From Haliotis rufescens (taxonomy: Eukaryota), in assembly GCF_023055435.1 (NCBI RefSeq), contig NW_025963779.1:47802001-47866000 (forward strand): a stretch of DNA of 64,000 nucleotides, written 5' to 3'. The position numbers were made by a program, and so were the translations under genes. The first letter of the stretch is position 1. The number at the start of each line of letters is the position of its first letter. This document shows, piece by piece, positions 14,592-50,509 of this stretch. The notes under the pieces were generated by a model. The model searched no databases, was not told where the DNA came from, and saw only the letters and a list, made by a program, of their open reading frames with translations.

Positions 14592-15190
14592 CTTCAACAA
14601 AATTAGGGGTTGCATGTACCAGCGCTGCAATACTGTGTGTCAGGCTACCTATGCACGTGTCAGTGCAGCAATACTGTGTGTCAGGCTATCTATGCACGTG
14701 TCAGTGCAGCAATACTGTGTGTCAGGCTATCTATGCATGTGTCAGTGCAGCAATACTGTGTGTCAGGCTACCGATGCAAGTGTCAGTGCAGCAATACTGT
14801 GTGTCAGGCTACCTATTCAAGTGTCAGCGCTGCAATACTGTGTGTCAGGCTACCTATTCAAGTGTCAGCGCTGCAATACTGTGTGTCAGGTTATCTATGC
14901 ACATGTCAGCGCTGCAATACTCTGTGTCAGGCTAACGATACACGTGTCAGCGCTGCAATACTGTGTGTCAGGTTATCTATGCATGTTTTAGCGCTGCAAT
15001 ACTGTGTGTCAGGCTACCTATGCACGTGTCAGCGCTGCAATACTGTGTGTCAGGCTACCTATGCAAGTGTCAGCGCTGCAATACTGTGTGTCAGGTTATC
15101 TATGCACATGTCAGCGCTGCAATACTCTGTGTCAGGCTAACGATACACGTGTCAGCGCTGCAATACTGGGTGTCAGGTTATCTATGCATG
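14592..15190. repeat. 41-bp minisatellite, left part (GTGTCAGCGCTGCAATACTGTGTGTCAGGCTACCTATGCAC)
   Basis: 41-bp period seen directly; cut by Gypsy A at 15191. Confidence 0.95.
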
Positions 15191-15777
15191 TGTTACAGTA
15201 CATATATTTCATTACACTTTTTATATTTTTAACAAATTAAACTTAAACTAGGAAATTCTAAAATTCGAAAGTCGCTAGACCAGTATTTCTCGTTTTTATC
15301 GCCACTGGTCGACCATGACGGCTGCTCCTTGGCAAGCTCATTCACGCGAACAGTAAATTACATAATCATAGATGAAGTCGGCGCGTACGTCCGCCCCGGC
15401 CCTTGTTCTCTTGATAAATGTTTTGTTACCAGCTGGCGCAGGTTTTGACCACCATCTTAAACTGTAATTAAAATAAACTCTCCTCTGGCAATACTGATAC
15501 CATTCTATTACCACCTGCTTTTGTGTAGTCAACTTTGACAGCCCAGGGCAGATAACAGAGACCGAAATTACAACTTCAAAGTAATTGTTAATGTGATAAG
15601 AGTAGAGCTGTGGGGGTATATAACTCCTTGGGTGTTGGTCCTCAGCACACTTGCTTGAATAAACCCTAAGGACCTCACAGCTCTCTTCTCTCCTGTTTCA
15701 AGGCTAGCTCCCAATAGCTAATTCCCCAAACCGAGGCCTGACAGTTATTGGGATCACCCCAAAAAGGCTGTCTTAAT
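15191..15777 (+). repeat. Gypsy A 5' LTR (short form, 587 bp)
   Basis: TG start; TATATAA at ~15617; AATAAA at ~15658; followed by TGGTGGAGA; ~99% identical to the 3' copy apart from indels; ends ...TCTTAAT, not CA. Confidence 0.85.
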
Positions 15778-15786
15778 TGGTGGAGA
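15778..15786 (+). promoter_or_regulatory. Truncated primer-binding site (tRNA-Ala-like, only 9 nt)
   Basis: TGGTGGAGA is complementary to the ...UCUCCACCA end of tRNA-Ala; diverges from the fuller copy at 25331. Confidence 0.7.
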
Positions 15787-15976: not shown

Positions 15977-17392
15977 ATGGCACAGATACATCTCCCCAAA
16001 TACACAGGTCAGCAGGATGCTGAAAGTTGGTGGGCAGATTTCTACAATTTCAACTTCCTCCATCGTCACACAGACACCCAATCCTGTAGAATTCTGCCCT
16101 TCTACCTGGACGGAGCTGCTAAAGTATGGTTCAGGGACCTGCCTGCGCACACACAGCTGGACATCCACTTGCTGAAAGCAGCCTTTCAGCAACGATTCCG
16201 AAGTTCGCCAGCTTTCAATTTGAGTCTTCTTGACATGACACAGAAGAAACAGGAGGACGTTGGAGACTTCATCACCAGGGTCCAAGCATCCGCGTTACAC
16301 TCCTGCTTACCACAATCTGTGATAGTAGCCATTGCAATCAATGGGCTACTCCCACAGATTAAGCAGTGGGTGTATATGAAGGAGCCACTGACCCTGGATG
16401 AGGTTCGTCACCATGACCAACTGGCTGTACAATCGCAGGCCCCAAGCAAGGAAGAGGTCAGCTTGGTCCAACAAGTTGAGCAATTAACGAACTTGGTGAC
16501 CATGCTGATCACTACAAACAAAGTCTGTGCTGTACAATCAGCAACTCCCTCATCCCACCATCAGCAGCACGAGCCCCAGGTCCAGCAACAGCCACCCTCC
16601 CCATCACCAAGATACCACCAGCAACCACAACAGGAACCATACCAACCACCACAGGATCCATACCAGTCACCACAGGAACAATACCAACCACCACAGGATC
16701 CATACCAGTCACCACAGGAACCATACCAGTCACCATAAGAATCATACCAACCACCACAGGAACCATACCAGCCACCAAAGGAACCATACCAGTCACCACA
16801 GGAACCATACCAGTCACCACAGGAACAATACCAACCACCACAGGATCCATACCAGTCACCACAGGAACCATACCAGTCGCCACAAGAATCATACCAACCA
16901 CCACAGGAACCATACCAGTCACCACAGGAACAATACCAACCACCACCACAGCAGTACCAACCACTACAACATCAATACCAGATACGGCAGGAACAATATC
17001 AACCACTACAGGAACAATACCAACCATCACCACAGCACTATCAGCCACCACAGAAGGAGTATGCAGTCCCACCACCTCAGCCCCACCACACAGCACAGCA
17101 ACAACAACAGACGCCATCCTTCTACCCGTACAGCTCCAGCAACAGTCAACGTCTGCCAATTCCACAGCACCTTCGAGGCAGATGTTGCGGATGTGGTGAG
17201 TTTTTTCGGTTCCCTCACAATTGCCCTCATAGAAATACAGTCTGTAATTATTGCTCACGCATAGGTCACCATGCAAAAGTATGCATGCGCGCATACTTTA
17301 CACAATATCGACAGCCACAGGGACTCATACCTGATACTCATCGTTCTGGGGTCAGGCAAGAGTCAGCCTTTGTATCACTTGTGGCTCCCTAG
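15977..17392 (+). pseudogene. gag: Gypsy A gag with Pro/Gln repeat and two zinc knuckles; premature TAA at 16736; TAG at 17390 before the in-frame protease
   Basis: LPKYTG..DAESWW..LPFYLDGAAKVWF..LKAAFQQRF..QKKQEDVGDF (retrotransposon gag); the same frame continues to CCGCGE..HNC and CNYCSRIGHHAKVC. Confidence 0.88.
16610..17070 (+). repeat. 21-bp coding minisatellite in gag, (P/S)PQ(E/D)(P/Q)YQ
   Basis: CCACCACAGGAACCATACCAA-type units, in frame. Confidence 0.9.
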
Positions 17393-20300
17393 ACAAAGAA
17401 CACTGTTCATGTCAAGGTGAAACAAGTGAGAACTACAGCTCTTGTTGACACAGGTGCATCAGTTAGCTGTGTCAGCATGGGCTACTTAAACAAGGTTGGC
17501 ATCAAACCCTCTCATTTACGCCCATCTCACCTAACCGAAATCATAGGTGTAGGTGGTGAAAAACATTCTGTGCTAGGCTCTGTCTCTCTTGACATTAACA
17601 TAGGGCATATCTACCTCTCCCAAATCTTTCATGTCTTTCACAACTTACATCACTCTCTCATCTTAGGAATTGACTTCCTTGAATTAAACAAAGTCACTAT
17701 AGACCTGCCCTCAAAATGCCTTCACATACACGAAGGTCTTGTTTCAGTCTCTCTGGCATCAATCAATGGAGGCTAATTATTCCTCCACACTCTCAAGCAG
17801 ACATTCCCATCAAAATTTCTCATTGTCAACAAGGTCAAGTTTTTCTTCTTGAACCAGTTCCGGCATTAAATGACATGCAGCTCCAAGGTGCTAAGTGCCT
17901 TATAACCAACAATCCAAAATCAGCTTGCATGAGATTGCTTAATGCGAGTGACAGCCATGTCACTTTATATTCAAAAACAGTGGTTGCTGTAGCCTCAGAG
18001 ATTGACCCCACATCTGTCCTTGACCTTCCTGACACTTCTGATTCTGATCCCCCTACTTCTACAACTGCTAACACAACACATTCACAGGACATTGACTTTG
18101 ATCTTAGTGATGCTGACCTCACACATGAACAACAAACACATTTACGTGCATTTCTCCAATCACAAAGGTCAGTTTTTGCCTCAGATTGGTCAGAATTAGG
18201 ACACACCCACTTACATCAACACAGAATAGAAACAGGTGATGCCAGACCGATGAGACTCCCTTTTTACAGGCAAAACGCAGCCATTAGAAAAGAATGTTCA
18301 ATACAGGTAAAAGAAATGTTAGATGCCAATATCATTCAACCTAGTTCTTCTGAGTGGCACTCACCTGTTGTCATGGTTAAGAAACGTGACAGCTCTTACC
18401 GCTTTGCCGTAGATTATAGACGCCTCAATGCAGTTACTAAGCCTATTTTTTTTCCTCTGCCACGTTTTGAAGATGTCGTTGATGCCGTAGGTGACAGCCA
18501 TGCCAAAATCTTTAGTGTCCTAGATTGTGCTAGTGGCTTTTGGCAAATACCACTCCACCCAGATACAAAACACAAGTCCGCCTTCATTACGCCTGATGGT
18601 GTTTTTGAATGGAATCGCCTTCCTTTCGGCCTCAAAAATGCTCCTATGGCATTTCAGCAAACCATTTCAGAGGCACTAAAAGAGATGAATTGGCGTTACA
18701 TATTGATATATGTCGATGACATAATAATATTTTCTAAAACCTTTTCGGAACATCTGAATCACCTCAAGGCAGTATTCCAAAAGATCAGAGAAGCAGGCCT
18801 CACTCTAAAACCCAGCAAATGTAAATTCGCAACCAAACAAGTTACCTACTTAGGGCATATCTTCAGCAAAGATGGCATCCATGTTGATCCTTCCAAAATA
18901 GATTCAGTCACACAGATTCCACCTCCTAAAAATGTCCATGATGTGCGTCATTTCCTAGGTTTGGCATCATATTATCGGAAATTTGTAGCAAACTTTTCTG
19001 GCATTGCCTCCCCTCTTTACAATCTTCTGAAAAAAGATGCATTTTTCGAATGGTCATACAATTGTCAACAGGCATTTGAAAAGCTAAAACATGCCCTTAC
19101 ATCTGCTCCTATCCTCGCATACCCTGACCAAAACCAACCCTTCATCCTCACAACTGATGCATCTCAAACTGCAATAGGGTACATTTTAGGCCAACTTGAT
19201 TCTCAAGGTAGAGAACATGTAATATGTTATGGTGGTCGCTCTCTCCATACTGCTGAAAAGAATTGGGGTATCACACATCTAGAATGCCTGGCCGTCCTAG
19301 AAGGTATTAAAAACTTCAGGGTGTACCTTGCAAATGGATCATTTTCTGTTTACACAGACCACAAAGCTCTGACTTGGCTTAAGAAAACCAAACATGACTC
19401 TGGTCGCCTTAGTAGATGGTCCCTAATGCTGCAAGAGTATGATTTTGAGATCATACACAGGCCAGGCAAAGCCAACACAAATGCAGATGCCTTATCTCGC
19501 ATTCCTCATGCAGAGCAAGTACATCAACCTAACACTGATGATATACCCTCCCCACCCATTTCAACAGAACCCATCTCATCAACCCGCACATATGCACAAG
19601 TAGCTGCCACTGCTTCATCTCCACTCTTATCCACTCCAATTTCACATTCGATGTCACCATCAAGCAGCCCCAAAGTGTCATTCCCTCATCACCAAGGCAA
19701 CATGAGGTTTACACCCTCGACTGCCACTTCTCCCCATTATGCCAATCCCAATACAGGCAACAAGAGGTCTACACCCTCGACTGCCACTTCTCCCCATTAT
19801 GCCGATCCCAATGCAGGCAACAAGAGGTCTACACCCTCGACTGCCTCTTCTCTCCATTATGCCAATCCCAATACAGGCAACAAGAGGTCTACACCCTCGA
19901 CTGCCACTTCTCACCATTATGCCAATGCCAATACAGGCAACAAGAGGTCTACACCCTCGACTGCCCATTCTTCCCATTATGCCAATCCCAATGCAGACAA
20001 CAAGAGGTCTACACCCTCGACTGCTCATTCTTGCCATTACGCCAATCCCAATGCAGGCAACATGAGGCCTACACCCTCGACTGCCTCTTCTCTCCAACAT
20101 GCTAATTCTCACTCCGACAACAAGAGGTCTACACCTTCAACTTCCTTCACTCGCCAATATGCTTATTCAAAAGCAGGCAATATGAGGTCTACACCCTCAA
20201 CAGCCTTATCTCACAAACCAGCCAGCCATGCTCATCCAAGTCCCATGCCACCTACTGACAAGAAGACAAACAAGTCGTTCACCACTGCTACAAAATCCTC

Positions 20301-22344
20301 CAACAACAGTGTCCACACCAAACTACCATTCATGTCTCGTCCCTCCAGCCAACTGAGGTCTTCTTCCTCTTCAACCAAATCATGTTCATCTCCACAAAAC
20401 AACTTTCCAAAGCATACAAACATTGACAATGACACTCTTGACTCACACAGTGTCTCATCAGAAGATATCAGTAGAGATGACATAACATCCTCTATATCTG
20501 TAGACTTTGTCTACAAGTCGGGTCCTCACGATCCTCCTTCAGGCCCTATGGTCTTTGTTATAGGAACTGATCTTGATGATAAAGACTTGGCAGAAAAGCA
20601 ACGTAAATCCCCTGACCTTCGTCCAATCATGGACTACATTGAAAAAGGTGAAATACAGATACACCTATACAGATGTTCAAGTCAAGGGTCTAACTGGCCT
20701 TGCTCAAGAGTATGACATACGTGATGGTATTCTGTACCACTTCTATCATGCAAAACATAGAGGTCAGAAAAACAATCGCCCTCCTATGGTAACACAGCTA
20801 GCTGTCCCTGTCTGCCGTCGCAAAGAGCTTATTTTTGCCTACCATGATTCCAAAGCTGGTGGTTGCCACTTGGGACGAGATGCCACTCGTCAGACAATAC
20901 TCACAAAGTATTACTGGCCAGGCTTATACCAGGATATTGAGAATTATGTCAAGTCCTGTGATGACTGCCAACGCTCCAAAAGAAGGACAAATGCCAAGCC
21001 AGCACCAATGGTGCCCATGCCTATTGAGGACACATTCTCTCGTCTCCATGTTGACATCCTCGGGCCATTGCCTGAGACTAAGGAAGGTTATAAGTATGTT
21101 CTCCTTGCAGTTGATTCCTTCTCACGCTGGACTGAAGGTTTCCCTATGCGCACCCAAGAAGCCTCCGAGGTTGCATCAATCCTGTTCACTGAGGTTTTCT
21201 CACAGTTTGGTGCTCCCCATACACTTCTTACTGACAGAGGTAGGCAGTTCACTTCCAAGCTAGTAAATGCTCTCTGTGAACTCCTCGATATCAAGCACTA
21301 CTACACTTCGTCCTACCACCCCCAGACTAATGGGATGTGTGAAAGGAGGAACAGTGTCATAGAGCAGGCTCTCCGAACATATGCTGACCCTGATCAGACC
21401 AATTGGGCCAAACTCATTCCATGTGTTATGATGGCCATGTGCAATGTACCTTGTCAATCTACAGGGTATTCACCACACTACCTTCTGTTTGGAAAGGAAA
21501 TGAATCTTCCTTTTGACACAACCTTGCTGCCTAAATCTACCCTCGGCAAAGATGCACAGGGTCATCTTCAAGATCTCTTGAAAAATCTGAATGTGGCAAA
21601 ATCCCTTGCAAAGGACAACGTGTCTGCTGCTCAGGATAAAAGCAAGAATCTTCAGGATATCAGAGCCAAGAAACCTTCATTTGCAGTTGTTGATCAGGTT
21701 CTCATGACTGATCCAACTGTCTCAAAACTGGCCTTTCCCCCAAACTGTCAAAGAAATGGATAGGACCTTACAGAATCATTCGCATCAGTCTAAACCATAC
21801 ATTCAAACTACTGAACACTAACACAAACAAAGAACATAAATCCTTCATTCATGCCAACAGACTTAAAACTTATACACCTCCAACCCCTCGAAGACAACCT
21901 GCACAACCAGCTCAGCATCTAGCAACACCCACTCAGTCGCCAGCCTCCCAGCCCGACAATCCTCGTAGAGAAGCCTCACAAACAGCCGGGCATCAATCAA
22001 CTCCAACTCAGTCAACATCCTCCCATCCTGACAACCCTACCACAACACAGCACACTTCCGTAGAGCATCCCATTATGCTACCTCACTCGTCTGATAACTC
22101 TGACACTATTCCACAGAGTCCCACATCATCTGCCCAACCAGATGATCAACTTTATGCTGTAAAACGCAAAGCTAAAAAGAAGTCAGGAGTAACTCATTAC
22201 CTAATTGAATGGGAAGGTTACCCCCAACGCACCTGGGAACCTGCCTCCAACCTTAGTGCGGAAATGGTAAGTGATTACCATACATTTAGAACAGGATCTG
22301 GTCACAGACGGAAACGGAAACACAGATATTTTGCAAAATCATAG
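17393..22344 (+). pseudogene. pol: Gypsy A pol: protease, RT, RNase H, long repeat linker, integrase (HHCC, DDE, GPY/F), chromodomain; frameshifts near 17770, 20650 and 21725
   Basis: ALVDTGAS; DYRRLN, LPFGLKNAP, YVDD; TDAS, VYTDHKAL, NADALSR; YH..GCHLG..CDDCQ, HVDILG, LTDRG, NGMCERRN; WIGPYRI..HANRLK; YLIEWEGYPQRTWEPASNL. Confidence 0.92.
19695..20210 (+). repeat. 60-bp in-frame tandem repeat (~9 units, GNKRSTPSTATSPHYANPNT) between RNase H and integrase
   Basis: exact 60-bp period; reading frame open throughout. Confidence 0.95.
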
Positions 22345-23306
22345 GTCGTGACCTTCCATGCTATTCCTCCTGGCAACAAGTCATCATTTGTCAAGGTAGA
22401 TGAGCTCTGACCACCCCCTACAGGTAATCAAATTGCCTTGTGTTCTATAAGTGCTACGCAGTGAAATGTTGTGGCCACAACTTTCCTGCATCAATGGTCA
22501 TCCCATCTGACTTGTACTTTGGTTTCTTTTTGTCTTTGGTCAATCATGGGGAGCCACTATCCTTGAGTTCGGCTGATATTCATGCCTCCTGTCCTGAGTA
22601 ACCTTGCTTTGCCTCCAATCCCTAACTATGATACGTACACGTCAACTACCGTTAATCTCTCGTTGTCATCACCACCTTAACAGACTACAATGTTACCATT
22701 CTGTTAGGAATCTTGGCTGTTCCTTGGGCAGCATTTCTCATCCTTGTCTCAAAATCTCAACTTACTTGAGTGTGCCTCAATTCCAATTCTTCCACTCACT
22801 ATGTGTCCTTCCTATTGGCACATCCAACCGCCTTCTGGTGCCTCACTTCCCGCACATTCACAAACTCTTTAAGCACCCCTTTGCCACCTATATCCTAATA
22901 TTTCACAACGGATACTTTCAAATCGTAGACCTAGCGTGATGTGAAATGTTTGACAGTGTAAGGGCAAATTGTTGGGGAACGCTAAAAACTCCCTCATCAC
23001 ACAACAACCTTTCCTCATATTATGTATATTCTTGTTAACCGGTTTCCTTTTCACAGAAATGCTTGTTCATTACTTCAAATTGTCATTTTTCTTGTAGTTT
23101 AATATGTAGGTATGTTTCAGAATCTTTGTAATGGAAATCGTGTGCCTTATGTTTTCAACTGATCAAACTATCTTCATGCAAACATTTGTTCATGTCCAAC
23201 GTAATCTATTGTATCATTGTATTCTGATTATCTATGTATATTCGCTTCATTTTAATCCTTTTCTTTTGGCTTTTGAGGACAAAAGCTCCACGACGCACAG
23301 GGGTAT

Positions 23307-25330
23307 TGTTACAGTGCATATATTTCATTACACTTTTTATATTTTTAACAAATTAAACTTAAACTAGGAAATTCTAAAATTCGAAAGTCGCTAGACCAGT
23401 ATTACACTTTTTATATTTTTAACAAATTAAACTTAAACTAGGAAATTCTAAAATTCGAAAGTCGCTAGACCAGTATTTCTCGTTTTTATCGCCACTGGTC
23501 GACCATGACGGCTGCTCCTTGGCAAGCTCATTCACGCGAACAGTAAATTACATAATCATAGATAAAGTCGGCGCGTACGTCCGCCCCGGCCCTTGTTCTC
23601 TTGATAAATGTTTTGTTACCAGCTGGCGCAGGTTTTGACCACCATCTTAAACTGTAATTAAAATAAACTCTTCTCAGGCAATACTGATACCATTCTATTA
23701 CCACCTGCTTTTGTGTAGTCTTTTGTGTAGTCAACTTTGACAGATAACAGAGACCGAAATTACAACTTCAAAGTAATTGTTAATGTGATAAGAGTAGAGC
23801 TGTGGGGTATATAACTCCTTGGGTGTTGGTCCTCAGCACACTTGCTTGAATAAACCCTAAGGACCTCACAGCTCTCTTCTCTCTTGTTTCAAGGTAAGAA
23901 ACATTTAAATATTCCTATTTTATGACTAAACTTCTTATTTCATTGTTATTATTGTCTAGAAAATGTTATAGTTAAGTTGAATCAGTGCTGCCATATTGTA
24001 ACTCTCAATCTACTCTGTACAAGTTCTAAATGACTGCTCATTATATATATTATTTACTGTTTAATACACAGTAATTTCCCAGTGTTATTCGAAGTGTAAT
24101 GCGTCGTGGGCTCCTCCAGTTTATGTGTCATTAATATGCGGCACCAATAGTTCTCTCCTATATTTCGACATCCATGATTATTTTCTCCTTCTATGTCTAA
24201 CATCATCTGTTCAAAATACCAGATGCATATACAGTTTATATTTCCGTGCAGTAGCATAGCGTACATGTAGCTTAGTCACAAAACGGTTCCTAGAGTTAAC
24301 ACAACTGTTTCAAGCAAGATTTATTCTATACGTAGGTCGGTTAGTCCATATTTTCCGACAGTCCACCGATCAAAGGTTATATGAGCAGCTTTACCTTCCG
24401 TGTGCGCTTACAGAATAGGCTATAACAACGCATTCCATATTTCTTAGGTTTTATCCTCATTAAGTAAGTATTTGAATATACTTGTAAAGAGTCCCTTTCC
24501 TCATATAGTTGCATACGGTACAACACAACCTATACTACAATTTTATTACCGTAGTCATTTAAACAGTGTTATAGTCATCTTTTATACTTCATAACAACGT
24601 ACATTTAAATGCGCATCGTTTAAGTATACAATTGCCGTATTCACTCCATTAGCTGTTATCGTCTAGCTCCGTATATATATAGGAAATGTGCGTAGTCAAT
24701 AGCAACATAGCCGCCGTGATTCATTACCATAGTCACCAAAGTAATCACCACTAAAACTAATAATTACACTAACTAAAACCGAGCTATGTCTTCTACCGCG
24801 TACATTCGTATCTTTATTTAGATCAAGTATTTACTTTCCGTATTAGCCGAAATTATTATGTTGTGATAATTATTACTGAAACCACAAATATTAATGTTTA
24901 CCGTCTTTTCAAGTAAATGTCATGTTCCTCATCTAAGCAGTTTGTGCAGTCTACCGTACATGCTCTATTAAAATGTTACGACTACTCAATTTAGCTGTTA
25001 AGAAATGTTATTTAGCATTACGGTTATTATTCTAGTAAATACTGCATCTGTTGTATAATGTTACCATACATACTCCAATTTAAATACATTGCCTTTATTA
25101 TTATGCCTTTATTAGATGGACAATGTGTTAGCATATTATTATCATTATTATGATTGTACGTCACTATTATATATTAATTGATGTAACTTGAATGATAGCA
25201 CACTTGCTTGAATAAACCCTAAGGACCTCACAGCTCTCTTCTCTCCTGTTTCAAGGCTAGCTCCCAATAGCTAATTCCCCAAACCGAGGCCTGACAGTTA
25301 TTGGGATCACCCCAAAAAGGCTGTCTTAAT
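23307..25330 (+). repeat. Gypsy A 3' LTR (long form, 2024 bp) including a 1362-bp segment absent from the 5' LTR
   Basis: 23307-23893 matches 15191-15702 (plus 74-bp and 12-bp tandem duplications, 10-bp and 1-bp deletions); 25197-25330 matches 15644-15777; short purine run AGGGG upstream. Confidence 0.8.
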
Positions 25331-25348
25331 TGGTGGAGAATCCGGGTA
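25331..25348 (+). promoter_or_regulatory. Full-length primer-binding site, tRNA-Ala-like
   Basis: TGGTGGAGAATCCGGGTA immediately after the LTR end. Confidence 0.8.
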
Positions 25349-25476
25349 GCGTGAGTTTGCTGTGACTCACGCACGATCCCCCTACCCTAACTCGCAGCAA
25401 AGCAAATGGTAGTTCAGAGGTGATGGGAGACAAAAGCAGCGTCAAGCCGCCATCTTGACGGGAAAACGAAGAAACG

Positions 25477-25580
25477 ACAGACAGCAGCACAGCCAACCCA
25501 ATCGTCAGCAACAGACAGCAGCCCAGCCAACCCGATCGTCAGCAGCAGACAGCAGCCCAGCCTAACCGAACGTCAGCAAC
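25477..25580 (+). repeat. 35-bp tandem repeat x3 in the putative leader
   Basis: CAGACAGCAGC(A/C)CAGCCAACCC(A/G)ATCGTCAGCAA units. Confidence 0.8.
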
Positions 25581-27035
25581 AACGACATCCAGACAATATT
25601 CATGTAACCATGCTACCAACACTCAAGATCAAGTCGACCATCGTCAAGATTCTTTAGCAAGTGCCTACCGATATATGTGTGTGTGACAATATATTTGAAC
25701 TTTCGTTCCAAATCTCAATGTGTACTGTGCCTATACGTATTCCTACGGACATTCTTTTTCATATAAGGTATGTTATGTAATCGGGTATTATTGTTTCGTT
25801 GTCTTAAAATTTTGTCATGTTTTTCTTTAATGAGTATGTATTGCAATCTATGTATTGTTATCAGAGGTACATCCTTATCAGATTAAGTTTTTGAAATTGG
25901 CTAAGCTCCTACTCTATTCATGTCCTACACCCTACGCTTATACGCATTTAGTGCAGATCCACGATATCTGCGGGTTCCGAGTCATCCCATACAAATCAGA
26001 CTCCCGGTTTCAAGGATTTTACTTTTAATTTGTGGCCCTATAACCATTACTATAGACAATAGCTTTCACAAAGTTATCCAATACCCTACAATTTCCTGCT
26101 TATATCTTCATTTATTCCTTTTTGAGTATGTAAGCACTGAAATTATTTGTACTCTTTGTGAAAACTGATAAAATCGATGTAGTAGCAGCGATTGTAGAAG
26201 TATAATAAGTTAGGGAGCCTCGTTGCTTACCAAGCTTATTCAGTGGAGATTGTGTATACAGTCTATATCCTACTTCTTCGTTTTGCCGACGTGATTTTGT
26301 GCTTAATTATGATACCGGCGAAAATTATGTATATTCGTGCGATCAACCGTAAATGGTCTCTGGCACACAAAATACGATTCGTTCAAATATCTTCAAGACA
26401 ATTTCACATGATTGAATTTTTCATTACATTCCAGTTTAGACTTTTGAAGTTGGTTAGGTTTTGCATACACATTCTACTTTTTAGCGCAGATCACACTTCA
26501 CATCTGCTAGCCTTGTCGAGTCTAGGCTCACAATATAAGACTCCCAATTTCAAAGATCTTACTGTTATCATGAAAATATTACTTTCATATGCAAACGACA
26601 ACGCTTTACGCACATTATGTTTTTGTCCTTACGTCATCAGTGTACTTTACTTCAACAATGTTTATTGTCTGTTTCAATGTGATACCTGTGATCTAGCAGT
26701 CTGGTATTCCGACTGCAAGGGCGACCGCGGGCAGGATGTGCCGCTCGGTGGAAACTCTTCCCGTGTTCCTTGTGTATGAGCCGGAATCTCCGCTCACCTT
26801 TATTTTGTGTGTACGAGCCGGCACCTCCGCTCAACTTGTTAATGTTATGTATAGTTGTTTCATCGGTATTGACAATGCTGTTATTCACTTATTTACTTTT
26901 ACGCGCCTGTACATCTTATCTATTGTCATTTCATTCATCTCAGTCAAGTGTAGTGCATGAAGCAACAGCTTGTCAACCTGTCGATGTCACTTGCATTGTA
27001 CTGTACTTGTACTTCTACTCAATATTGTCACTGTT

Positions 27036-27802
27036 TGTGTCAGGTTATCTATGCATGTTTTAGCGCTGCAATACTGTGTGTCAGGCTACCTATTCAAGTG
27101 TCAGCGCTGCAATACTGTGTGTCAGGCTACCTATTCAAGTGTCAGCGCTGCAATACTGTGTGTCAGGTTATCTATGCATGTTTTAGCGCTGCAACACTGT
27201 GTGTCAGACTGCCTATGCACGTGTCAGTGCAGCAATACTGTGTGTCAGGCTACCGATGCACGTGTCAGTGCAGCAATACTGTGTGTCAGGTAATCAATGC
27301 ATGTTTTAGCGATGCAACACTGTGTGTCAGGCTACCTATGCACTGCACGTGTCAGTGCAGCAATACTGTGTGTCAGGCTACCTATTCAAGTGTCAGCGCT
27401 GCAATACTGTGTGTCAGGTTATCTATGCATGTTTTAGCGCTGCAATACTGTGTGTCAGGCTACCTATTCAAGTGTCAGCGCTGCAACACTGTGTGTCAGG
27501 CTATCTATGCACATGTCAGTGCAGCAATACTGTGTGTCAGGCTACCTATGCACGTGTCAGCGCTGCAATACTGTGTGTCAGGTTATCTATGCACATGTCA
27601 GTGCAGCAATACTGTGTGTCAGACTACCTATGTAAGTGTCAGCGCTGCAACACTGTGTGTCAGGCTATCTGTGCACGTGTCATCGCTGCAATACTGTGTG
27701 TCAGGCTACCTATGCACGTGTCAGCACTGCAACACTGTGTGTCAGGCTACCTAAGCATGTGCCAGCGCTGCAACAGTATGTGTCAGGTTATCTATGCATG
27801 TA
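27036..27802. repeat. 41-bp minisatellite, right part
   Basis: same unit as 14592-15190. Confidence 0.95.
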
Positions 27803-38483: not shown

Positions 38484-41462
38484 TGGTGATGGTGGTGGTG
38501 GTGATCGTGATGGCACCATGGATCTCACTAGTGGTGGTGGTGATAGTGATGGCACTATGGAACTCACTAGTGGTGGTGGTGGTGGTGATGGTGATAGTGA
38601 TGGCACCATGGAACTCACTAGTGGTGGTGGTGATGGTGATGGCACCATGGAACTCACTAGTGGTGATGGTGATGGTAATGGCACCATGGAACTCACTACT
38701 GGTGGTGGTGATGGTGATGGCACCATGGAACTCACTAGTGGTGGTGGTGATAGTGATGGCAATATGGAACTCACTGGTGGTGGTGGTGATGGTGATGGCA
38801 CCATGGAGCTCACTAGTGGTGGTGGTGATGGGGATGGCACCATGGATCTCACTAGTGGTGGTGGTGATAGTGATGGCAATATGGAACTCACTAGTGGTGG
38901 TGGTGATGGTGATGGCAATATGGAACTCACTAGTGGTGGTGGTGATGGTGATGGCACCATGGAGCTCACTAGTGGTGGTGGTGATGGGGATGGCACCATG
39001 GATCTCACTAGTGGTTGTGGTGATGGTGATGGCATCATGGGACTCACTAGTGGTGATGGTGATGGTGATGGCACCATGGAACTCACTAGTGGTGGTGGTG
39101 ATGGTGATGGCACCATGGAACTCACTAGTGGCGGTGGTGATGGTGATGGCACCATGGATCTCACTAGTGGTGGTGGTGATAGTGATGGCACTATGGAACT
39201 CACTAGTGGTGGTGGTGGTGGTGATGGTGATGGTGATGGCACCATGGAACTCACTAGTGGTGGTGGTGATGGGGATGGCACCATGGATCTCACTAGTGGT
39301 GGTGGTGCTGGTGATGGCACTATGGAACTTACTAGTGGTGGTGGTGGTGGTGGTGGTGATGGTGATGGTGATGGTGATGGCACCATGGAACTCACTAGTG
39401 GTGGTGGTGATGGTGATGGCACCATGGAGCTCACTACTGGTGGTGGTGATGGTGATGGCACCATGGAACTCACTAGTGGTGGTGGTGATGGGGATGACAC
39501 CATGACATTCACTAGTGGTGGTGGTGATGGTGATGGCACCATGGAACTCACTAGTGGTGATGGTGATGGTAATGGCACCATGGAGCTCACTACTGGTGGT
39601 GGTGATGGTGATGGCACCATGGAACTCACTAGTGGTGGTGGTGATAGTGATGGTACCATAGAACTCACTAGTGTGGTGGTGATGGTGATGGCACCATGGA
39701 ACTCACTTCTGGTGATGGTGATGGTGATGGCACCATGGAACTCACGAGTGGTGGTGGTGATGGGGGTGGCACCATGGATCTAACTAGTGGTAGTGGTGAT
39801 GGGGATGGCACCATGGAACTCACTAGTGGTGGTGGTGATGGTGATGGCACCATGGAACTCACTAGTGGTAGTGGTGATGGGGGTGGCACCATGGAACTCA
39901 CTAGTTGTGATGGTGATGGTGATGGCAATATGGAACTCACTAGTGGTGGTGGTGATGGTGATGGCACCGTGGATCTCACTAGTGGTAATGGTGATGGGGA
40001 TGGCACCATGGAACTCACTAGTGGTGATGGTGATGGTGATGGCAATATGGAACTCACTAGTTGTGTTGGTGATGCGGATGGCACCATTGAACTCACTAGT
40101 GGTGGTGGTGATGCGGATGGCACCATGGAACTCACTGGTGGTGATGGTGATGGTGATGGCAATATGGAACTCACTAGTGGTGGTGGTGGTGATGGTGATG
40201 GCACCGTGGATCTCACTAGTGGTGGTGGTGATGCGGATGGCACCATTGAACTCACTAGTGGTGGTGGTAATGGTGATGGCTACAATGGAACTCACTAGTG
40301 GTGGTGGTGATGGGATGGCAGCATGGAACTCAATAGTGGTTATGATGATGGGGATGGCACCATGACATTCACTAGTGGTGATGGTGATGGCACCATGGAG
40401 CTCGCTACTGGTGGTGGTGATGGGGATGGCACCATGACATTCACTAATGGTGGTGGTAATGGTGATGGCACCATGGAACTCACTAGTGGTGGTGGTGATG
40501 GCGATGGCACCATGGAACTCACTAGTGGTGGTGGTTATAGGGATGGAGCCATGGAACTCACTAGTGGTGGTGGTGATGGTGATGGCACCATGGAGCTCAC
40601 TAGTGGTGGTGGTGGTGATGGCGATGGCACCATGGAACTCACTAGTTGTGGTGGTGATGGTGATGGCACCATGGAACTCACTAGTGGTGGTGGTGATGGT
40701 GATGGCACCATGGAACTCACTAGTGGTGGTGGTGATGGCGATGGCACCATGGAACTTACTAGTGGTGGTGGTGCTGGTGATGGGATGACACCATGACATT
40801 CACTAGTGGTGGTGGTGATGGTGATGGCCCCATGGAACTCACTAGTGGTGGTGGTGATGGTGATGGCACCATGGAACTCACTAGTGGTGGTGGTGATGGC
40901 GATGGCACCATGGAACTTACTAGTGGTGGTGGTGCTGGTGAGGGGGTGACACCATGACATTCATTAGTGGTGATGGTGATGGTGATGGCAGCATAGAACT
41001 CACTAGTGGTGGTGATGGTGATGGCACCATGGAACTCACTAGTGGTGGTGGTGATGGTGATGGTGATGGCACCATGGAACTCACTAGTGGTGATGGTGAT
41101 GGGGATGGCACCATGGAACTCACTAGTGGTAGTGGTGATGGGGATGGCACCATGGAACTCACTAGTGGTGATGGTGATGGGGATGGCACCATGGAACTCA
41201 CTAGTGGTAGTGGTGATGGGGATGGCACCATGGAACTCACTAGTGGTGGTGGTGATGGGGATGGCACCATGGAACTGACTTCTGGTGGTGGTGATGGTGA
41301 TGGCACCATGGAACTCACTAGTGGTGATGGTGATGGGGATGGCAGCATGGAACTCACTATAGCTGCCGGTGATGGGGATGGCAGCATGGAGCTCACTAGT
41401 GGTGGTGGTGGTGGTGATGGGGATGGTACCATTTAAATTACTGGTGGTGGTGATGGTGATAG
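38484..41462. repeat. GGT/GAT-based satellite, subfamily 1 (~39 bp, GGCACCATGGAACTCACTAGTGGTGGTGGTGATGGTGAT)
   Basis: unit read directly; length varies mostly in steps of 3 bp. Confidence 0.95.
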
Positions 41463-42410
41463 TGTAGCAGGTGTATATATTTGTATTTTAGTCTTTTTGT
41501 AAATAAATCTATTTCAAGTTTTGTTTCTGTTGAACTTTATTCAACAGAGGTGTGTGTTTGTTTTTATCCCATCATTCTAAGTCAAGGCCTCAGTGATCAA
41601 TCACAACCCAAGCTCAACTACATTCTTTGTCCAGCCCTCTGCTGATCAATCACACCCCAAGCGATCCTGTGATTGGCCACATTCAAACTTTACCTTCTTG
41701 CTCTGACTAACTCCATATTGCCACCTTCACTATGCACTGCACTGGGAGTATTCATAGATCACCACAAAAGGTTAGTTTATAATTTATCGTTATTTCTAAA
41801 TAGTATTAAATAGTAATCAAAGATTAGGCATTATAAATAAGCATCTCAGAAGTAATTATATTTACATTGAATCACATATTTCTATTAATGTTGATGTTTT
41901 GAATGAATGTGGTTTAGAGGCTGAACTTTAAACCTAAGCTTTAGTGTATTTTAATATTATCTTGTATACATGCCAAGTTATATCTACATTAATGGAATTG
42001 CACCAACTATGCATTTTGTTATTCATTTCAATGTATTTAGTCACTCTAAGTATTTATTCCTGCTCTTTCTTCTGCAGGACATATCATGAATGGTGACATT
42101 TCAAGGGTAACACGTTTTACACCCTTGTGCCACACATAGAGTATGTGTAACCATTTTACTTAATATGTACTGTAAGCCATTTCTATCATATCATCTAATA
42201 ATAATTAGTTGTAAGTAATGTAACAGAAATGATTGTATTGCTTTGATGATGATATGATATATATTATGTTTTAATATGCATATACTATATTATCTGTTTC
42301 TTATTACAGGGTGACTATCGTGATTATAATAAACATAAGCCTCACACCCCGTAGCCGTCTTGGTGTCATCTGTTTAAAATAATGGATAAAGCCAAGAAAA
42401 CCCGGTTACA
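41463..42410 (+). repeat. Gypsy B 5' LTR
   Basis: TGTAGC...GTTACA; only 3 substitutions seen versus the 3' LTR; AATAAA at 42328. Confidence 0.97.
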
Positions 42411-42414
42411 TGTT

Positions 42415-42434
42415 TGGAGCCCCCAGTGAGGATT
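42415..42434 (+). promoter_or_regulatory. Primer-binding site, tRNA-Thr-like
   Basis: TGGAGCCCCCAGTGAGGATT is the reverse complement of AATCCTCACTGGGGGCTCCA, a tRNA T-stem/acceptor end; isotype inferred. Confidence 0.75.
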
Positions 42435-43969
42435 CTTATGTGATGTGATGCTTGGATCCCAGCATGGAATGCAAGTGTATGAACGAACTGTAATTATGGT
42501 CTATTTGGCCATCTCGCGAGTGATTGTCAGGTCCATGTGGTTGGGTCTTGTGACCCTAGGACTTACTGATCTTTGACAGCGACCTTGACCCAGAGACTCC
42601 AAGGCAGGTCAAGTTAACAATTTGCTGGACTTGGTTCAGTGATTGTGATTGTGAATTGTGACTCATTTTCCGGACTATTTTGTTTCTCGTATCTAATTGG
42701 ATATATTTATATTGTTCTTCTTGAACTGTAAGTACTGTTTCTACATTTTTTGCAATATTGCTTTGTCTTTGTTTACATTTGACATGTCTGTAAACATTCA
42801 TATTTGAATTTTCTGTTCATTATGAACTTGTAAATATTTGCCTGGCATAACGCCTTGTCGTTTCTTCAAATGCCTTTACGGTTTGTAGCATTGCTATTGT
42901 TTACATATATACCTGCAGGTTATTTACCCTCAATAAGATGTAGTGTCAACTGCACTTATTTTCATTCGGTGTAAACATATCCATATCAATTTGCGTTTGT
43001 TTATACTTAGCTGCAGCTTAATTAGTTAGCATTTAGTTGTGCTTGTACAAGCTTCACCGGTGTTCTCGTTTATTTCCATACTGTAGTATCTTTAATCATT
43101 TACAATTTGTTTTAGGTGTGACGTGTGAGTATGATTGTGTGAATATACTTAAACCAATAAACTTAGCCAAATAAACTTAAGTTTTAAATAAACTTAGCAT
43201 TTAAACTTCAGTTTAATCTTAGATTATACATGTCATAGTTAAGTTAATCATTATTAGCTCTAATCAAGGGGTATATTATTCAACCTGCGCTGCGCTGCAC
43301 TGCACTGCACTACACTTAGTTTAAATATCTAACCAGCTCATACACATCTTTGTCTTCCCCTTTGCTTGTGGTCTTTATTCATTCATTATGTAGGGTCCAT
43401 TTGTAATTATCACCCTTTGCTTTCGTGTCTTGTTGTTTTCTTTTTGGGGGGGAATTGGTATTCCCGTTTGCCGTTCGTGATTATTTTGCGTTTGCGATGT
43501 TTTTGCTCCGTTTGCGTTTGTCGTGAAATGTCTACATCATGATGGCGTTGCCTTGAGCCGCGACCCGTTTTGTACATATTGTCACGCGTTCCGACACACT
43601 GTGGTCTTCATAGTTATTGTAGTCCACACATTTCATTATTCTGCCTCTGCAAACCATGTTATAATCTAATCCTAGGGTCAAATCTTGTTAATCACCCATG
43701 TGTGTAATACTTGCATTTGCCATATAAACCCAACTGATGTCCTTTAATTTGTTTATTTGCCGCTGAAAATACAATTGTTGTTCTCTCACTGTATATGTTT
43801 CTTTTTGTATGGGACTAAAAAACATCGTCTTTGTAGTTATTGACACATTCACAAACCACCATCTACTGCACTTCAAGTCATTGTGTTGTGCCTGTGAAAT
43901 AATTACTGCCAGCCTTGGATCCATGTTTGATTTTGTTTATTCTTTACTTGGAGTCTTGTGCCTTTGAAG

Positions 43970-45226
43970 ATGAATTTCTCTGAAGAAGAATATGCTAGTC
44001 TTGTTGATAGTTTTGCTAAGATGGGTTTGCACCCTAAGGCTGATAACCCCGATGACTTTAAGTCTTGGTTGAAGCAGTATGCCACGCAGGGTGGCCCAGT
44101 TGTGAAGAAGGAAGAAGCTTCCACTTTAGATGGTTCTCAGCCAGAACAGGTACCACTTAGTTCTAAGGTTGCTTATCGTCACTTCCCTAAACTACCTGTG
44201 TTTAGTGGAACGGCCGGCAAGGATGCTGACTATGATGTTTGGCGGTATGAGGTGAACTGTCTCATGGAGTCCAAGACCCATGACAACTCTGTTATCCTTC
44301 AGGCTATTCGTCAGTCACTTAAGGGTGAGGCAGCTCTTATTGTGATGAAGCTTGGTCATCATGCTTCTATTGTGGATATTCTGTTGAAGTTGAAGAGTGC
44401 TTTCGGTACTCTCCGCCGAAGTTCTTCATTATTTTCGGAGTTCTACAGCTCCTACCAGCAAAATGATGAAGACGTGACTGCCTGGAGCTGTCGACTTGAG
44501 AGACTGTTATACCAGTTGTCGGAACAGAAGCAGATTTCTTCAGCAGAGCAGGATGAGATGTTGAGGTCCAGACTTTGGGATGGATTGAAGACTTCACTGA
44601 AGAGTCTTGCTGCTCATAAATATGAGAGTATCTCCGACTTTGATGAGCTAAGACTGTGCCTCCGTGAGATAGAATTTGAACAGAACCGAGCCAAATCAGA
44701 TATCCAGAAGTCCAAGTCAAAGCCCGCATCCGTCAACATGGCCAGTAACCAGCCCGCCTCCAAGCCTGATGACATCGCTGAGCTGAAGGGGATGATCAAG
44801 GATCTGACCACGAGTGTGTTCGACCTACGTGACCAACATCAGCAGCTGTCAGCCCAAGTGTACCAGCAACAACCTTCCTTTGGTTCTACCACCCACGGAC
44901 AGCAGTATGGGAGAAGACCACTGAGATCAAGAGGTCGCGGACAGGGAGGACGAGGATTTCAGCCAGCTATGTATGATCCTCGATCCAGCCAGTATCCTGC
45001 TCCATCTCCCGAGGGAAGGAGTGCCGCTGCCCCTTCCTACTTCTATCAACCTGGGGCTGGAGCTAATGACAACAGATCTCTCACACCTGGACAAGCATCG
45101 GATCACGAGCCTGTGTGTTTCAGGTGTGGCTATCCCGGACATTTGTATTATGGTTGTCGTGTACGTCTTGACCATCTTAAGAGGCCTTTAAACTCGGCCA
45201 CGCCTATGGCCCGGGGGCGCCCGTAG
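43970..45226 (+). CDS. gag: Gypsy B Gag, PNMA/Ma-like capsid with CCHC zinc knuckle
   Basis: open frame (ATG 43970); LPVFSG..DYDVWRYEV..AIRQSLKGEA..LKSAFG; CFRCGYPGHLYYGC. Confidence 0.92.
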   Translation: MNFSEEEYASLVDSFAKMGLHPKADNPDDFKSWLKQYATQGGPVVKKEEASTLDGSQPEQVPLSSKVAYRHFPKLPVFSGTAGKDADYDVWRYEVNCLMESKTHDNSVILQAIRQSLKGEAALIVMKLGHHASIVDILLKLKSAFGTLRRSSSLFSEFYSSYQQNDEDVTAWSCRLERLLYQLSEQKQISSAEQDEMLRSRLWDGLKTSLKSLAAHKYESISDFDELRLCLREIEFEQNRAKSDIQKSKSKPASVNMASNQPASKPDDIAELKGMIKDLTTSVFDLRDQHQQLSAQVYQQQPSFGSTTHGQQYGRRPLRSRGRGQGGRGFQPAMYDPRSSQYPAPSPEGRSAAAPSYFYQPGAGANDNRSLTPGQASDHEPVCFRCGYPGHLYYGCRVRLDHLKRPLNSATPMARGRP

Positions 45227-45227
45227 G
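45187..45227 (+). promoter_or_regulatory. Programmed -1 ribosomal frameshift signal (T TTA AAC plus GC-rich stem/pseudoknot)
   Basis: heptamer is in the correct gag phase; the -1 frame is open from 45190 into ALVDTGA; CCTATGG/CCGTAGG and GGCCA/TGGCC stems follow. Confidence 0.8.
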
Positions 45228-48200
45228 TGTTACATCTAGCCCTCGTGTATTCGCACACACTGACTTAGTTGGGAATTCAAATGAGGTAGATATACTTATT
45301 GAGAATATTCCTGTTAGGGCATTAGTGGACACAGGTGCCACAGTGTCTATTGTGTCTAGCTCTTTTTATGATAGGTATCTCACTCATATTCCCATACATT
45401 CAGTAGATAGCCTTCTTAATATTGAATGTGCAGGTGGTAACTCATTACCTTACTCTGGTTACATTGAGGTTAAGGTCAAGGGCATTGGTGATGGTTGTGA
45501 TGACCAAGATGACATGACTTGTTTGTTACTTGTTGTGCCTGACACTAGCTATAATGCCAAAGTTCCTGCTCTTCTTGGGACTAATGTTCTTGGAGTGCTT
45601 TTGGATGCCTGCAGAAAGGTTAATGGAATCCGATTCCTTCAGACGGCCAACCTCTACACACCTTGGTACCTGGCCTTTAGAAGTATGATGCTTCGAGAGA
45701 AGGAGTTAGAGAGGAATGGTGGGAAGTTGGGCTTTGTTAGATCCATTGAATATAAGCCTGTAATCATACCTGCTAATGGTTCTGCCATTATTCGTGGACA
45801 ACTGTGCAAGGGGATTCCATATCCACAAGTGTGTGCCCTTATACAGCCAACTGTAGACTCTACTATTTCCAAGGACTTAGACATCATACCAGCCGTTGTG
45901 AGATACTGCCATGACAGACCAGATGAGATACAAGTTCATGTGTCTAATGTTACTACCCAGACCATGATTGTTCCCACTAAGGCTCTGCTGTGTGAACTTC
46001 AACCAGTGACAATAGAAGACCTACCAGACATGAGATGTTCAGACTCTGAGAAGTGGATTGACGACATTGAGTTGGAGGAAGATGGACTTACACGTGATGA
46101 AGTTGCACAGGGACTTGAGGTTATAAGGAGGTATGGTGACATTTTCTCTAAACACGATAAAGATCTTGGACATTCCAACATGGTCAAGCATCGGATAGAA
46201 CTCTATGATGACGTGCCCTTCAAGCAGAGACATCGGCGTATACCACCAGCGATGTATGACCAGGTTCGGAGTCATCTTCAAGAACTGTTGTCCTCTGGTG
46301 TGATTAGACACTCTCATAGTCCTTGGGCATCCAACGTTGTGTTAGCCAAGCGCAAAGATGGCCGATTACGTCTATGCATAGATTTTCGCCAGCTGAACAA
46401 CCGGACAATTAAGGACAGTTATGCTCTCCCAAGAATTGAAGAACTTCTAGATTGTCTCGGAGGGAACAAGTTCTACTCAGTGTTGGACATGAAGAGCGGC
46501 TATTACCAAGTCGAGATAGATGATGACCATAAGGAGAGAACGGCTTTTACTGTAGGTCCACTCGGATTTTTCGAGTACAACAGGATGCCGTTCGGCTTGT
46601 CAAACGCCCCAGCGACCTATCAGCGCCTTATGGAGAAGTGTCTAGAGGGACTGAACTTGAAGATTTGCCTTATATACATTGATGATCTCATCATATTTTC
46701 CCGGACATACGAAGAGCATGTGGAGAGGCTGGAGCTCGTCTTTAGAAGATTACAAGAATGTGGACTGAAGCTCGCCCCACAGAAATACAAGTTCTTTAAG
46801 AGGAAGGTGAGGTACGTTGGGTATATTGTGTCTGCTGAGGGGATTGAAGCAGATCCAGAGAAGATAGACAAGATTCAGCACTGGCCAACACCATCTACGC
46901 CAGAAGACATCCGGAAATTCTTGGGATTTGCTGGATACTATCGGAAATTCGTCCAGGACTTCTCTAAGATAGCCAGACCTCTCTCAGAACTTATGCCAAA
47001 GTGTGCCACCAAGAAGTCGAGGTCTAAGACATCCCAAACTGCTTGTAACTGGGGTCCTGCTCAAGAAGAAGCTTTCCAGGAGTTAAAGAACAGACTTTCA
47101 TCACCTCCAGTCCTCGGGTGTGCTGACTTCTCAAGACCTTTCGAGCTGCACACTGATGCTAGTACCCATGGCCTAGGAGCAGTCTTATACCAGGAGCATG
47201 ATGGTCACCTACGAGTTATTGCCTATGCAAGTAGGGGTTTGAATCGATCTGAACGGAACTATTCAGCACATAAACTCGAGTTTTTGTGTCTGAAATGGGC
47301 CGTTTCAGAGAAATTTCACGACTACTTGTATGGCAATGATTTCGTGGTAATGACTGACAATAATCCCCTGACGTATGTACTTACTACAGCATGTCTGGAC
47401 GCCACAGGACATCGGTGGTTAGCTGCTCTAGCAAGTTACAACTTTACCATCAAGTACCGGCCAGGGAAGAGCAACGTTGATGCTGATGTGTTGTCTCGTT
47501 TGCCAAGCAAAGACCCAGTCCAGATGGAAGACCTGTCTAGTGATGTGGTGAGTGCTATCTGTAACAAGATTTGTGCACCTAATCTTGTTGAGAGTTTGTG
47601 CTTGTCTACAGAAGTGGTTCCAGGAAGTGAAGCAGATGTAAGTGACCATGTGTGTGCTGCCAATGCTAAGGATTGGCGTCGTGCTCAGCTGAAGGACACA
47701 TCCCTTGCTGTTATCATGGAGCATCTGGAGAATGCCACGAGACCTGACAGAACTCAGTTCCAAGGAGACCCAGAGATGACTACTTTATTGAAGACATTTG
47801 CACATTTGACTTTGAGGGAAGGTGTGTTATATAGAGTCACCAGCATGGATGGATGTGATCAAGAACAGCTAGTACTACCTTCCAGATGTAGGATTTCAGC
47901 ACTCAGAAGCTTGCATGATCGTGTAGGACATCCAGGCAGAGATCGGACCTTATCCCTACTCAAGGAAGGTTTCTACTGGCCTGGTATGACCAAGGATGTA
48001 GATGACTACCTGAAGATATGCGAGAGGTGTCTGAAGGGAAGGGAAACACATCCATCAGAGCCCCTTTGGTGAGCATCCAGACGTCGCAGCCAATGGAACT
48101 GGTCTGCATGGACTTCTTGACTCTGGAGCCATCCAAGGGTGGTCAACAGTATGTGTTGGTCATTACTGACCATTTTACCCGGTACGCTCAAGCCTATCCG

Positions 48201-49529: not shown

Positions 49530-49550
49530 TGAGGACATCATTTTCATGCC

Positions 49551-49559
49551 GGGGGGAAG
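49551..49559 (+). promoter_or_regulatory. Polypurine tract of Gypsy B
   Basis: GGGGGGAAG two bases before the 3' LTR. Confidence 0.85.
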
Positions 49560-49561
49560 TG

Positions 49562-50509
49562 TGTAGCAGGTGTATATATTTGTATTTTAGTCTTTTTGTA
49601 AATAAATCTATTTCAAGTTTTGTTTCTGTTGAACTTTATTCAACAGAGGTGTGTGTTTGTTTTTATCCCATCATTCTAAGTCAAGGCCTCAGTGATCAAT
49701 CACAACCCAAGCTCAACTACATTCTTTGTCCAGCCCTCTGCTGATCAATCACACCCCAAGCGATCCTGTGATTGGCCACATTCAAACTTTACCTTCTTGC
49801 TCTGACTAACTCCATATTGCCACCTTCACTATGCACTGCACTGGGAGTATTCATAGATCACCACAAAAGGTTAGTTTATAATTTATCGTTATTTCTAAAT
49901 AGTATTAAATAGTAATCAAAGATTAGGCATTATAAATAAGCATCTCAGAAGTAATTATATTTACATTGAATCACATATTTCTATTAATGTTGATGTTTTG
50001 AATGAATGTGGTTTAGAGGCTGAACTTTAAACCTAAGCTTTAGTGTATTTTAATATTATCTTGTATACATGCCAAGTTATATCTACATTAATGGAATTGC
50101 ACCAACTATGCATTTTGTTATTCATTTCATTGTATTTAGTCACTCTAAGTATTTATTCCTGCTCTTTCTTCTGCAGGACATAGCATGAATGGTGACATTT
50201 CAAGGGTAACACGTTTTACACCCTTGTGCCACACATAGGGTATGTGTAACCATTTTACTTAATATGTACTGTAAGCCATTTCTATCATATCATCTAATAA
50301 TAATTAGTTGTAAGTAATGTAACAGAAATGATTGTATTGCTTTGATGATGATATGATATATATTATGTTTTAATATGCATATACTATATTATCTGTTTCT
50401 TATTACAGGGTGACTATCGTGATTATAATAAACATAAGCCTCACACCCCGTAGCCGTCTTGGTGTCATCTGTTTAAAATAATGGATAAAGCCAAGAAAAC
50501 CCGGTTACA
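49562..50509 (+). repeat. Gypsy B 3' LTR
   Basis: 948 bp, TG...CA, followed by TSD ATAG. Confidence 0.97.

Follow-up and report, generated by a model that had tools for sequence, protein, structure and literature searches.

In a 64,000-nt window of the Haliotis rufescens genome (contig NW_025963779.1, positions 47,802,001 to 47,866,000), a long terminal repeat (LTR) contains a GT-AG intron of 1362 bp with two copies of one short segment around it, a segment that its sequence features lead us to read as the R region and the first exon together. This doubled R around an intron is the design of a whole Ty3/Gypsy family and not an oddity of the window. We give a probability of roughly two in three to a replication cycle in which splicing removes the intron at the 5' end of the genomic RNA and a jump of the strong-stop DNA onto the second R copy rebuilds it in both LTRs. 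It is also rather probable that the RNA of this retrotransposon is spliced inside its 5' LTR, retains the intron at its 3' end and regenerates it in every cycle.

The composite locus and its unequal LTRs

The element (all features on the + strand) begins with a short 5' LTR of 585 bp (15191..15775) formed by U3, a single R copy and U5, with TG...TA ends, and leads to a long LTR of 2022 bp (23307..25328) composed of U3, R copy 1, the intron, R copy 2 and U5. A PBS-like TGG motif (15778..15786) adjoins the short LTR and a polypurine-tract-like run (23296..23306) precedes the long one. The coding region of this autonomous element (15977..22344) is distributed over several frames and includes a weak gag/capsid match (15977-16738), a reverse transcriptase-RNase H (17683-20715), an integrase (20564-21763) and a chromodomain (21712-22344). 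The Gag and Ty3 capsid matches score under curated cut-offs, and a protease domain was not matched in the scanned frames. The Pfam domains follow the order RVT_1, RT_RNaseH, Integrase_H2C2 and rve, and the top PDB match is Ty3 Gag-Pol (E 1.3e-84); judged on its domains, the element is a Ty3/Gypsy LTR retrotransposon with a chromodomain-bearing integrase region. Copies of the family have two LTRs, PBS- and PPT-like motifs and 4-bp target-site duplications (TSDs); the window element has lost its right end and therefore has no TSD pair of its own. The LTRs of the window and of the family copies end in TA in place of CA, with TSDs of 4 bp, and the LTRs of older copies start with TAT. Two tandem arrays were observed in the coding region, a Gln/Pro-rich array of 21-bp units after gag (16620-17110) and an array of 60-bp units in pol (19695-20218).

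The long LTR had been labelled a 3' LTR in the original prediction, which describes its position at the end of the Gypsy element but only half of its role, since 23307..25328 is also the 5' LTR of a remnant of a different, non-autonomous family (family B), whose PBS and internal region follow it (25331..27035). The locus is thus a composite of both families. Family B has an internal region of ~1.75 kb, an LTR of its own of ~650 bp and at least 40 scored matches, and is covered deeply in contigs presumed to derive from RNA. Its first 9-10 PBS nucleotides are common to the PBS of the autonomous element. A second chimera, at C445:55.43 Mb (L128), has a long LTR of the Gypsy family on the 5' side of family B and family B's own LTR on the 3' side. 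In both chimeras the joint falls at the start of the PBS, which the two families have in common, and this suggests that they arose by plus-strand transfer between co-packaged RNAs. Family B also forms a tandem array at C68:15.38 Mb (L138-L140). In the window a 41-bp satellite truncates it immediately ahead of its PPT, and arrays of this satellite flank the composite on both sides (14611-15190 and 27036-27801) with the same phase at their right ends; the right end of the composite is lost at this satellite. Another Gypsy-type element, with 949-bp LTRs differing by 3 mismatches and with a PNMA-like gag and pol in pieces, lies between two satellite arrays at 41462-50509.

The difference between the two LTRs is, as had been predicted, the 1362-bp segment 23894-25255, which starts with GTAAGA and ends with a pyrimidine run and AAG; it is not their only difference, the U3 regions being separated by 4 substitutions and 4 indels, including a 74-bp tandem duplication. 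This duplication (23327-23400) and another of 12 bp (23708-23719) are private to the long LTR of the window. The direct repeat of 60 bp around the segment (23835-23894 and 25197-25256) is present as described, with 59/60 identity (BLAST E 1.9e-22), but only at the window: in the family it measures ~57 bp (23838-23894 and 25200-25256), the three extra bases being private to this locus. The short LTR is identical to the end of the long one over 143/143 positions (15644-15786 and 25197-25339). This stretch includes a private C, located at 25246 in copy 2 and at 15693 in the short LTR. The two LTRs of the window also share a U3 allele at 15362 that was found in none of the others of 46 LTRs compared, and these two private alleles, in U3 and in R, indicate that they are sisters.

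The short LTR of the window very probably goes back to a deletion between the two repeat copies, through slippage in plus-strand synthesis or through recombination after insertion, rather than to splicing: at position 47 of the repeat it has the base of copy 2, and splicing would not leave that base. Loss at the RNA level is disfavoured because it would shorten both LTRs; template-switch rates are described as similar in RNA- and DNA-dependent synthesis in the available part of PMC3187697. A spliced product joined by template switching to the long LTR of another element is an improbable origin, even though the U3 regions differ by 4 substitutions and 4 indels and the locus is already recombinant with family B at the PBS. 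Such a product would have the copy-1 base and its partner would be no sister, and four substitutions are within the range of the other LTR pairs (0-7). From the C allele alone, recombination or a fresh insertion with a 60-bp duplication had been mildly favoured over splicing with template switching. At the window the allele does point to recombination, and splicing does not account for it; fresh insertion is rejected, the long form being ancestral and old (see below). The allele was also proposed as a marker of copy 2 able to separate splicing from recombination throughout the family, and this use failed, since it occurs at only 3/73 exact acceptor sites, two of them in the window. The idea of a spliced LTR accordingly stands for the intron-like segment, both splice sites of which are used in RNA-type contigs, and not for the short LTR, a likely deletion.

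A family-wide layout with usable splice sites

Searching the same genome, together with fetched stretches, gave 137 R ends in 81 merged stretches, these counts being lower bounds. The recommended count of long and short LTRs yielded 59 donor-type ends, 60 acceptor ends preceded by the insert and 13 short forms, with the acceptor-type end directly next to U3, among the at least 137 R ends; the remaining 5 were unassigned. The 49 long LTRs with both copies collapse to 36 loci. The short form is not unique to the window, its 13 LTRs being spread over 9 loci. Four of these loci are elements in which both LTRs are short and the 4-bp TSDs match; the long form and the short form are both able to transpose. 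The window is the only mixed long/short pair among 17 neighbouring LTR pairs compared. On a U3 tree with a midpoint root, built from the 53 LTRs that had a recognisable start and a U3 length of 330-800 bp, the short form requires 7 changes, of which at least 3 fall on branches with good support; the two rows that diverge most are of the long form. The doubled layout is also found in subfamilies whose introns share only 78% identity, with 8-13 of the 57 R positions differing between old subfamilies and the young R. The tree suggests that the long form is ancestral and that short LTRs arose repeatedly. Tandem elements with three LTRs were seen at C24:13.83-13.85 Mb and C583:39.57-39.59 Mb. At C112:75847282-75849650 (L076), a third, small non-autonomous element consists of two short LTRs of the family around ~1 kb of other sequence, with a PBS of the family-B type and a 4-bp TSD.

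The reading of the repeat as R and exon 1 is based on a predicted start to its left, a splice donor at its right end and a poly(A) signal inside. A predicted TATA box (23808..23814) lies 30 nt upstream of R copy 1 (23838..23894), and a TATA-like motif is found at exactly -30 from copy 1 in 28/36 loci; about 30 nt is the usual distance from a TATA box to the start site. The strict motif TATAWAA is present at copy 1 in 29/36 loci and at copy 2 in 2/36. This upstream promoter is sufficient, since the four elements with two short LTRs and matching TSDs have transposed. Copy 1 contains AATAAA (23849-23854) followed by a T-rich run and ends at the donor AAG/GTAAGA, the GT of which, at 23894, is 39 nt after the AATAAA; the predicted exon 1 (23838-23893) corresponds to copy 1 up to this donor. 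R copy 2 (25200..25256) lies within the 3' end of the intron (23894..25255, 33% GC) and displays AATAAA at 25211, a pyrimidine run and the acceptor AAG/GC, after which exon 2 corresponds to U5 (25256..25328). The predicted doubling of the poly(A) signal is therefore confirmed. Two TGTA motifs (~25155 and ~25182) precede the second AATAAA and none precedes the first, which would fit copy 2 being the stronger poly(A) site. At the end of copy 1 (23870-23899), a pyrimidine tract and AG are followed by GTAAG, a shape that we take to be that of a recursive splice site.

The inserted segment could also have been an unrelated transposon, found at other target sites. It has no ORF longer than 73 aa and no match in Rfam, and its best 40 scored matches are in or beside LTRs of the family wherever the context was fetched, so that an independent transposon was rejected; a structured RNA found no support in the Rfam search. 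The donor AAG/GTAAGA is present in 32/36 loci, GT in 36/36 and the acceptor AG/GC in 36/36, figures inflated by the use of anchors at the splice sites to find the family copies. Because of the same bias, no weight is placed on the higher conservation (0.92) that six old copies display over the first 50 bases of the intron. As a branch point, only a weak candidate was seen, CTAA at 25219.

Contigs from several sequencing runs bear on the use of these sites. The runs were treated as RNA by guess, none being on record as RNA, and their contigs carry no information on transcript starts, ends or levels. A 1796-nt contig from one presumed-RNA run (X1) continues from the R end into a sequence with two occurrences in the genome, both preceded by a native pyrimidine-AG acceptor. 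For one of them, the same strand carries a solo long LTR whose donor lies 11,321 nt upstream, a proximity for which our own arithmetic gives a chance of ~5 in 10,000. In this pair, the solo long LTR (C35:26648802-26646869, minus strand) is 11.3 kb upstream of an exon (C35:26636980, minus strand; L149-L150) containing a 435-aa GT10 fucosyltransferase frame, and the contig joins the R end to this exon or to its paralog. It has 2 differences to the window and fits copy 2 of the C35 LTR or a variant copy 1, and its 30-mer is one base closer to the paralog, which has no LTR within 55 kb. The solo long LTR thus appears to be a possible donor of the first exon of a fucosyltransferase-like transcript. 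In another presumed-RNA run (X5), a 129-nt contig joins the end of a host exon, which reads AG/GTGAGT in the genome, to the first base of U5. The flank of this contig is a repeat with 96 matches, and its locus is not placeable; no LTR corresponding to the joint was found in the assembly within 50 kb. Donor and acceptor both work as splice sites, in one presumed-RNA contig each, to host exons.

The product of the element's own donor and acceptor equals copy 2 plus U5, the sequence of a short LTR, and the contigs break in the repeat. One contig (X2) spans the 3' internal region, U3 and copy 1 into the intron, and the reading of X2 and X5 contigs through copy 1 into the intron, together with the depths in X5 (U3 101, intron 115, U5 13-19), hints weakly at read-through in the 3' LTR. 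The depths in X1 (U5 86, intron end 28) present no drop after copy 2, and no poly(A) end was seen among the loose ends listed. A second donor-type loose end at 23893 (X4, X11) continues into a sequence that was found neither in the assembly at up to 3 mismatches nor in the 60 kb downstream of the best-fitting LTR, and it was set aside. A joint of R to family B (X4, X5) was discarded as a splice, both sites having a 9-nt microhomology and the upstream context being another repeat.

A candidate replication cycle and its competitors

The marks expected of strand transfer concentrate on the left edge of copy 2, at a hypervariable junction (25189..25199) that may represent the point of minus-strand transfer. 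Among the 28 young loci with intact U3 ends, 10-nt windows at this edge count 14-15 haplotypes, the maximum over 1.5 kb, for a median of 4 and a count of 4 at the edge of copy 1. The base at -1 of copy 1 is C in all 30 young loci and never G (0/30), and at -1 of copy 2 it is G in 16/30; copying of the cap by reverse transcriptase would add a G. Linkage is lowest across the left edge of copy 2 (mean r2 0.033 vs 0.12-0.26 within the intron), in a scan that is only partly informative, the value across copy 1 being low too (r2 0.058, few sites). For Ty1 and MLV, errors have been reported at the final base of U3 (PMC5399748), and PMC10085805 attributes recombination close to the U3-R junction to minus-strand transfer. 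The variability, the extra G and the linkage minimum together argue strongly, if indirectly, that the functional 3' R is copy 2 and that strong-stop DNA lands there.

The two copies of an LTR also appear to evolve together. Variants common to both copies of one LTR number 14 (9/36 loci) vs a mean of 1.8 in shuffles, and 5 vs 0.56 in the 30 young loci; the observed count was reached in 0/20,000 shuffles, which ignore the relatedness of the loci. The mean identity of the young copies 1 and 2 is 98%. This is directly explained if the spliced 5' end makes exon 1 the new copy 2 in every cycle. The copies are identical in 13/30 young loci and unequal in 17/30, and several young elements have the same difference between copy 1 and copy 2 in both LTRs; frequent intermolecular transfer, which is described as common in HIV-1 in the available text of PMC12789967, would account for both observations. 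These inequalities speak against a strict form of the explanation, and so does a 7-bp deletion, confined to copy 2, that two old loci have in common.

In the cycle that we propose, transcription would start at copy 1, 30 nt after the TATA box. Splicing of the cap-proximal intron, by sites that are usable although their own joint is deduced, would give an RNA starting with R-U5-PBS and would remove the second poly(A) signal. The first AATAAA may be silenced in both LTRs by U1 at the donor 39 nt further on, as an analogy with HIV-1 and foamy virus suggests, so that in the 3' LTR the RNA would read through the intron and be cleaved in copy 2, ahead of the AG, as the weak RNA hint mentioned above suggests. 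The 3' intron would escape splicing because the 5' intron benefits from its proximity to the cap and because cleavage takes away the acceptor on the 3' side. The strong-stop DNA would then anneal to copy 2, so that junction errors arise at this point and the copy-2 sequence is replaced by that of copy 1, a step for which the indirect evidence is strong, and the subsequent copying of the intron, copy 1 and U3 would make both new LTRs long. Short LTRs would represent repeated losses of the intron and one repeat copy. More speculatively, the structure could have originated when spliced strong-stop DNA was transferred once, by mistake, to the end of an RNA that had read through, which would explain why the repeat spans exactly the interval from start site to donor.

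In a competing reading, the promoter would be placed before copy 2, with copy 1 and the "intron" forming part of a long U3, the donor serving only to silence the first poly(A) signal and occasional gene conversion keeping the copies alike. Junction errors and the linkage break at copy 2 are explained equally well by this unlikely alternative, the donor contig could come from copy 2, the inequality of the copies in 17 of the 30 young loci is in its favour, and TATATAT lies 31-35 nt upstream of copy 2 in 29/36 loci. This motif is, however, not TATAWAA, and its distance shifts over 19-35 nt while the junction base stays fixed. Short-LTR elements transpose without that promoter, at least 5 separate variants found in both copies would each require their own conversion over 57 bp, and the junction of the window copies three bases from upstream of copy 1. 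Less likely still is a start at copy 1 without splicing, reverse transcriptase skipping from copy 2 to copy 1 by a direct-repeat template switch while it makes strong-stop DNA and then jumping to copy 2 at the 3' end. It predicts the same junction and the same transfer from copy 1 to copy 2, and retroviruses often delete direct repeats, with a figure of 41% for a repeat of 110 bp in PMC3187697. But skipping at the 3' end should remove the intron with equal frequency, and long LTRs nevertheless make up ~60/73; rounds without a skip should mark copy 1 with junction errors, and it has none. That the repeat ends exactly at a working donor is left unexplained. The poorest prospects are those of a passive old duplication in which R is one long unspliced block and short LTRs result from DNA recombination alone. 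The copy-2 allele of the window's short LTR and the scattering of short forms across the tree agree with it, but it predicts transfer marks at copy 1 and diverged copies, both contradicted, and contigs show the two splice sites in use; the place where the hypervariable junction lies largely refutes it.

Significance and comparison with known systems

Introns are expected to disappear from elements that replicate through spliced RNA. If the proposed cycle is true, the family would provide an intron able to persist although the element replicates through an RNA from which it is spliced, by a route in which R is duplicated across the intron and the first strand transfer restores it. Start site and transfer point would be recorded in the genome as errors at a single R copy, and the same approach could be applied to other families with very long LTRs. 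The cycle would also give host genes a ready-made cassette of promoter, exon, donor and acceptor, solo long LTRs supplying them with splice sites, and mixed long/short LTR pairs upset dating by LTR identity in annotation. It would represent a further solution to the problem of 5' versus 3' polyadenylation, beyond the three poly(A)-control strategies listed for retroviruses in the available part of PMC3694450. In the open text of PMC and bioRxiv, no paper was found on a doubled R around an LTR intron.

The family resembles Ty3/Gypsy elements in its LTRs, PBS- and PPT-like motifs, 4-bp TSDs and order of reverse transcriptase, RNase H and integrase, and differs from them by an R present twice per LTR around a 1.3-kb intron and by LTRs ending TG...TA. 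A splice donor near the R-region poly(A) signal, the predicted silencer, is shared with HIV-1 and foamy virus in the portions available of PMC3694450 and PMC12789967. According to these sources, the foamy virus donor is within both LTRs, as in the window family, whereas that of HIV-1 is outside the LTR, 195 nt downstream; foamy virus switches via RNA structure, and neither virus is described there with a second R copy or with a packaged RNA spliced within the LTR. The HTLV-1 LTR intron of EF1a/HTLV vectors also combines a donor and an acceptor in an LTR segment, and this donor also splices to downstream host exons, but in the accessible text (bioRxiv 10.1101/2023.01.28.526022) it is known from expression vectors, with neither a doubled R nor regeneration by reverse transcription.

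A likeness in intron behaviour concerns Penelope-like elements, in which a 5' UTR intron in or at the terminal repeats is kept after retrotransposition; the available part of PMC8557442 terms intron retention highly unusual among retroelements, calls its significance in these elements unknown and ascribes it to their unusual mechanism, not to a strong-stop jump. They belong to another subclass, with pseudo-LTRs and a GIY-YIG endonuclease or none, and a Penelope-like identity of the window family was rejected on its DDE integrase core and its true LTRs with PBS and PPT. Lastly, the deletion of direct repeats by reverse transcriptase, as far as PMC3187697 presents it, involves the precise loss of one repeat and the spacer, and fits the short LTRs and the one-sided loss at the window; it accounts for loss, and not for the persistence and co-evolution of the two copies.
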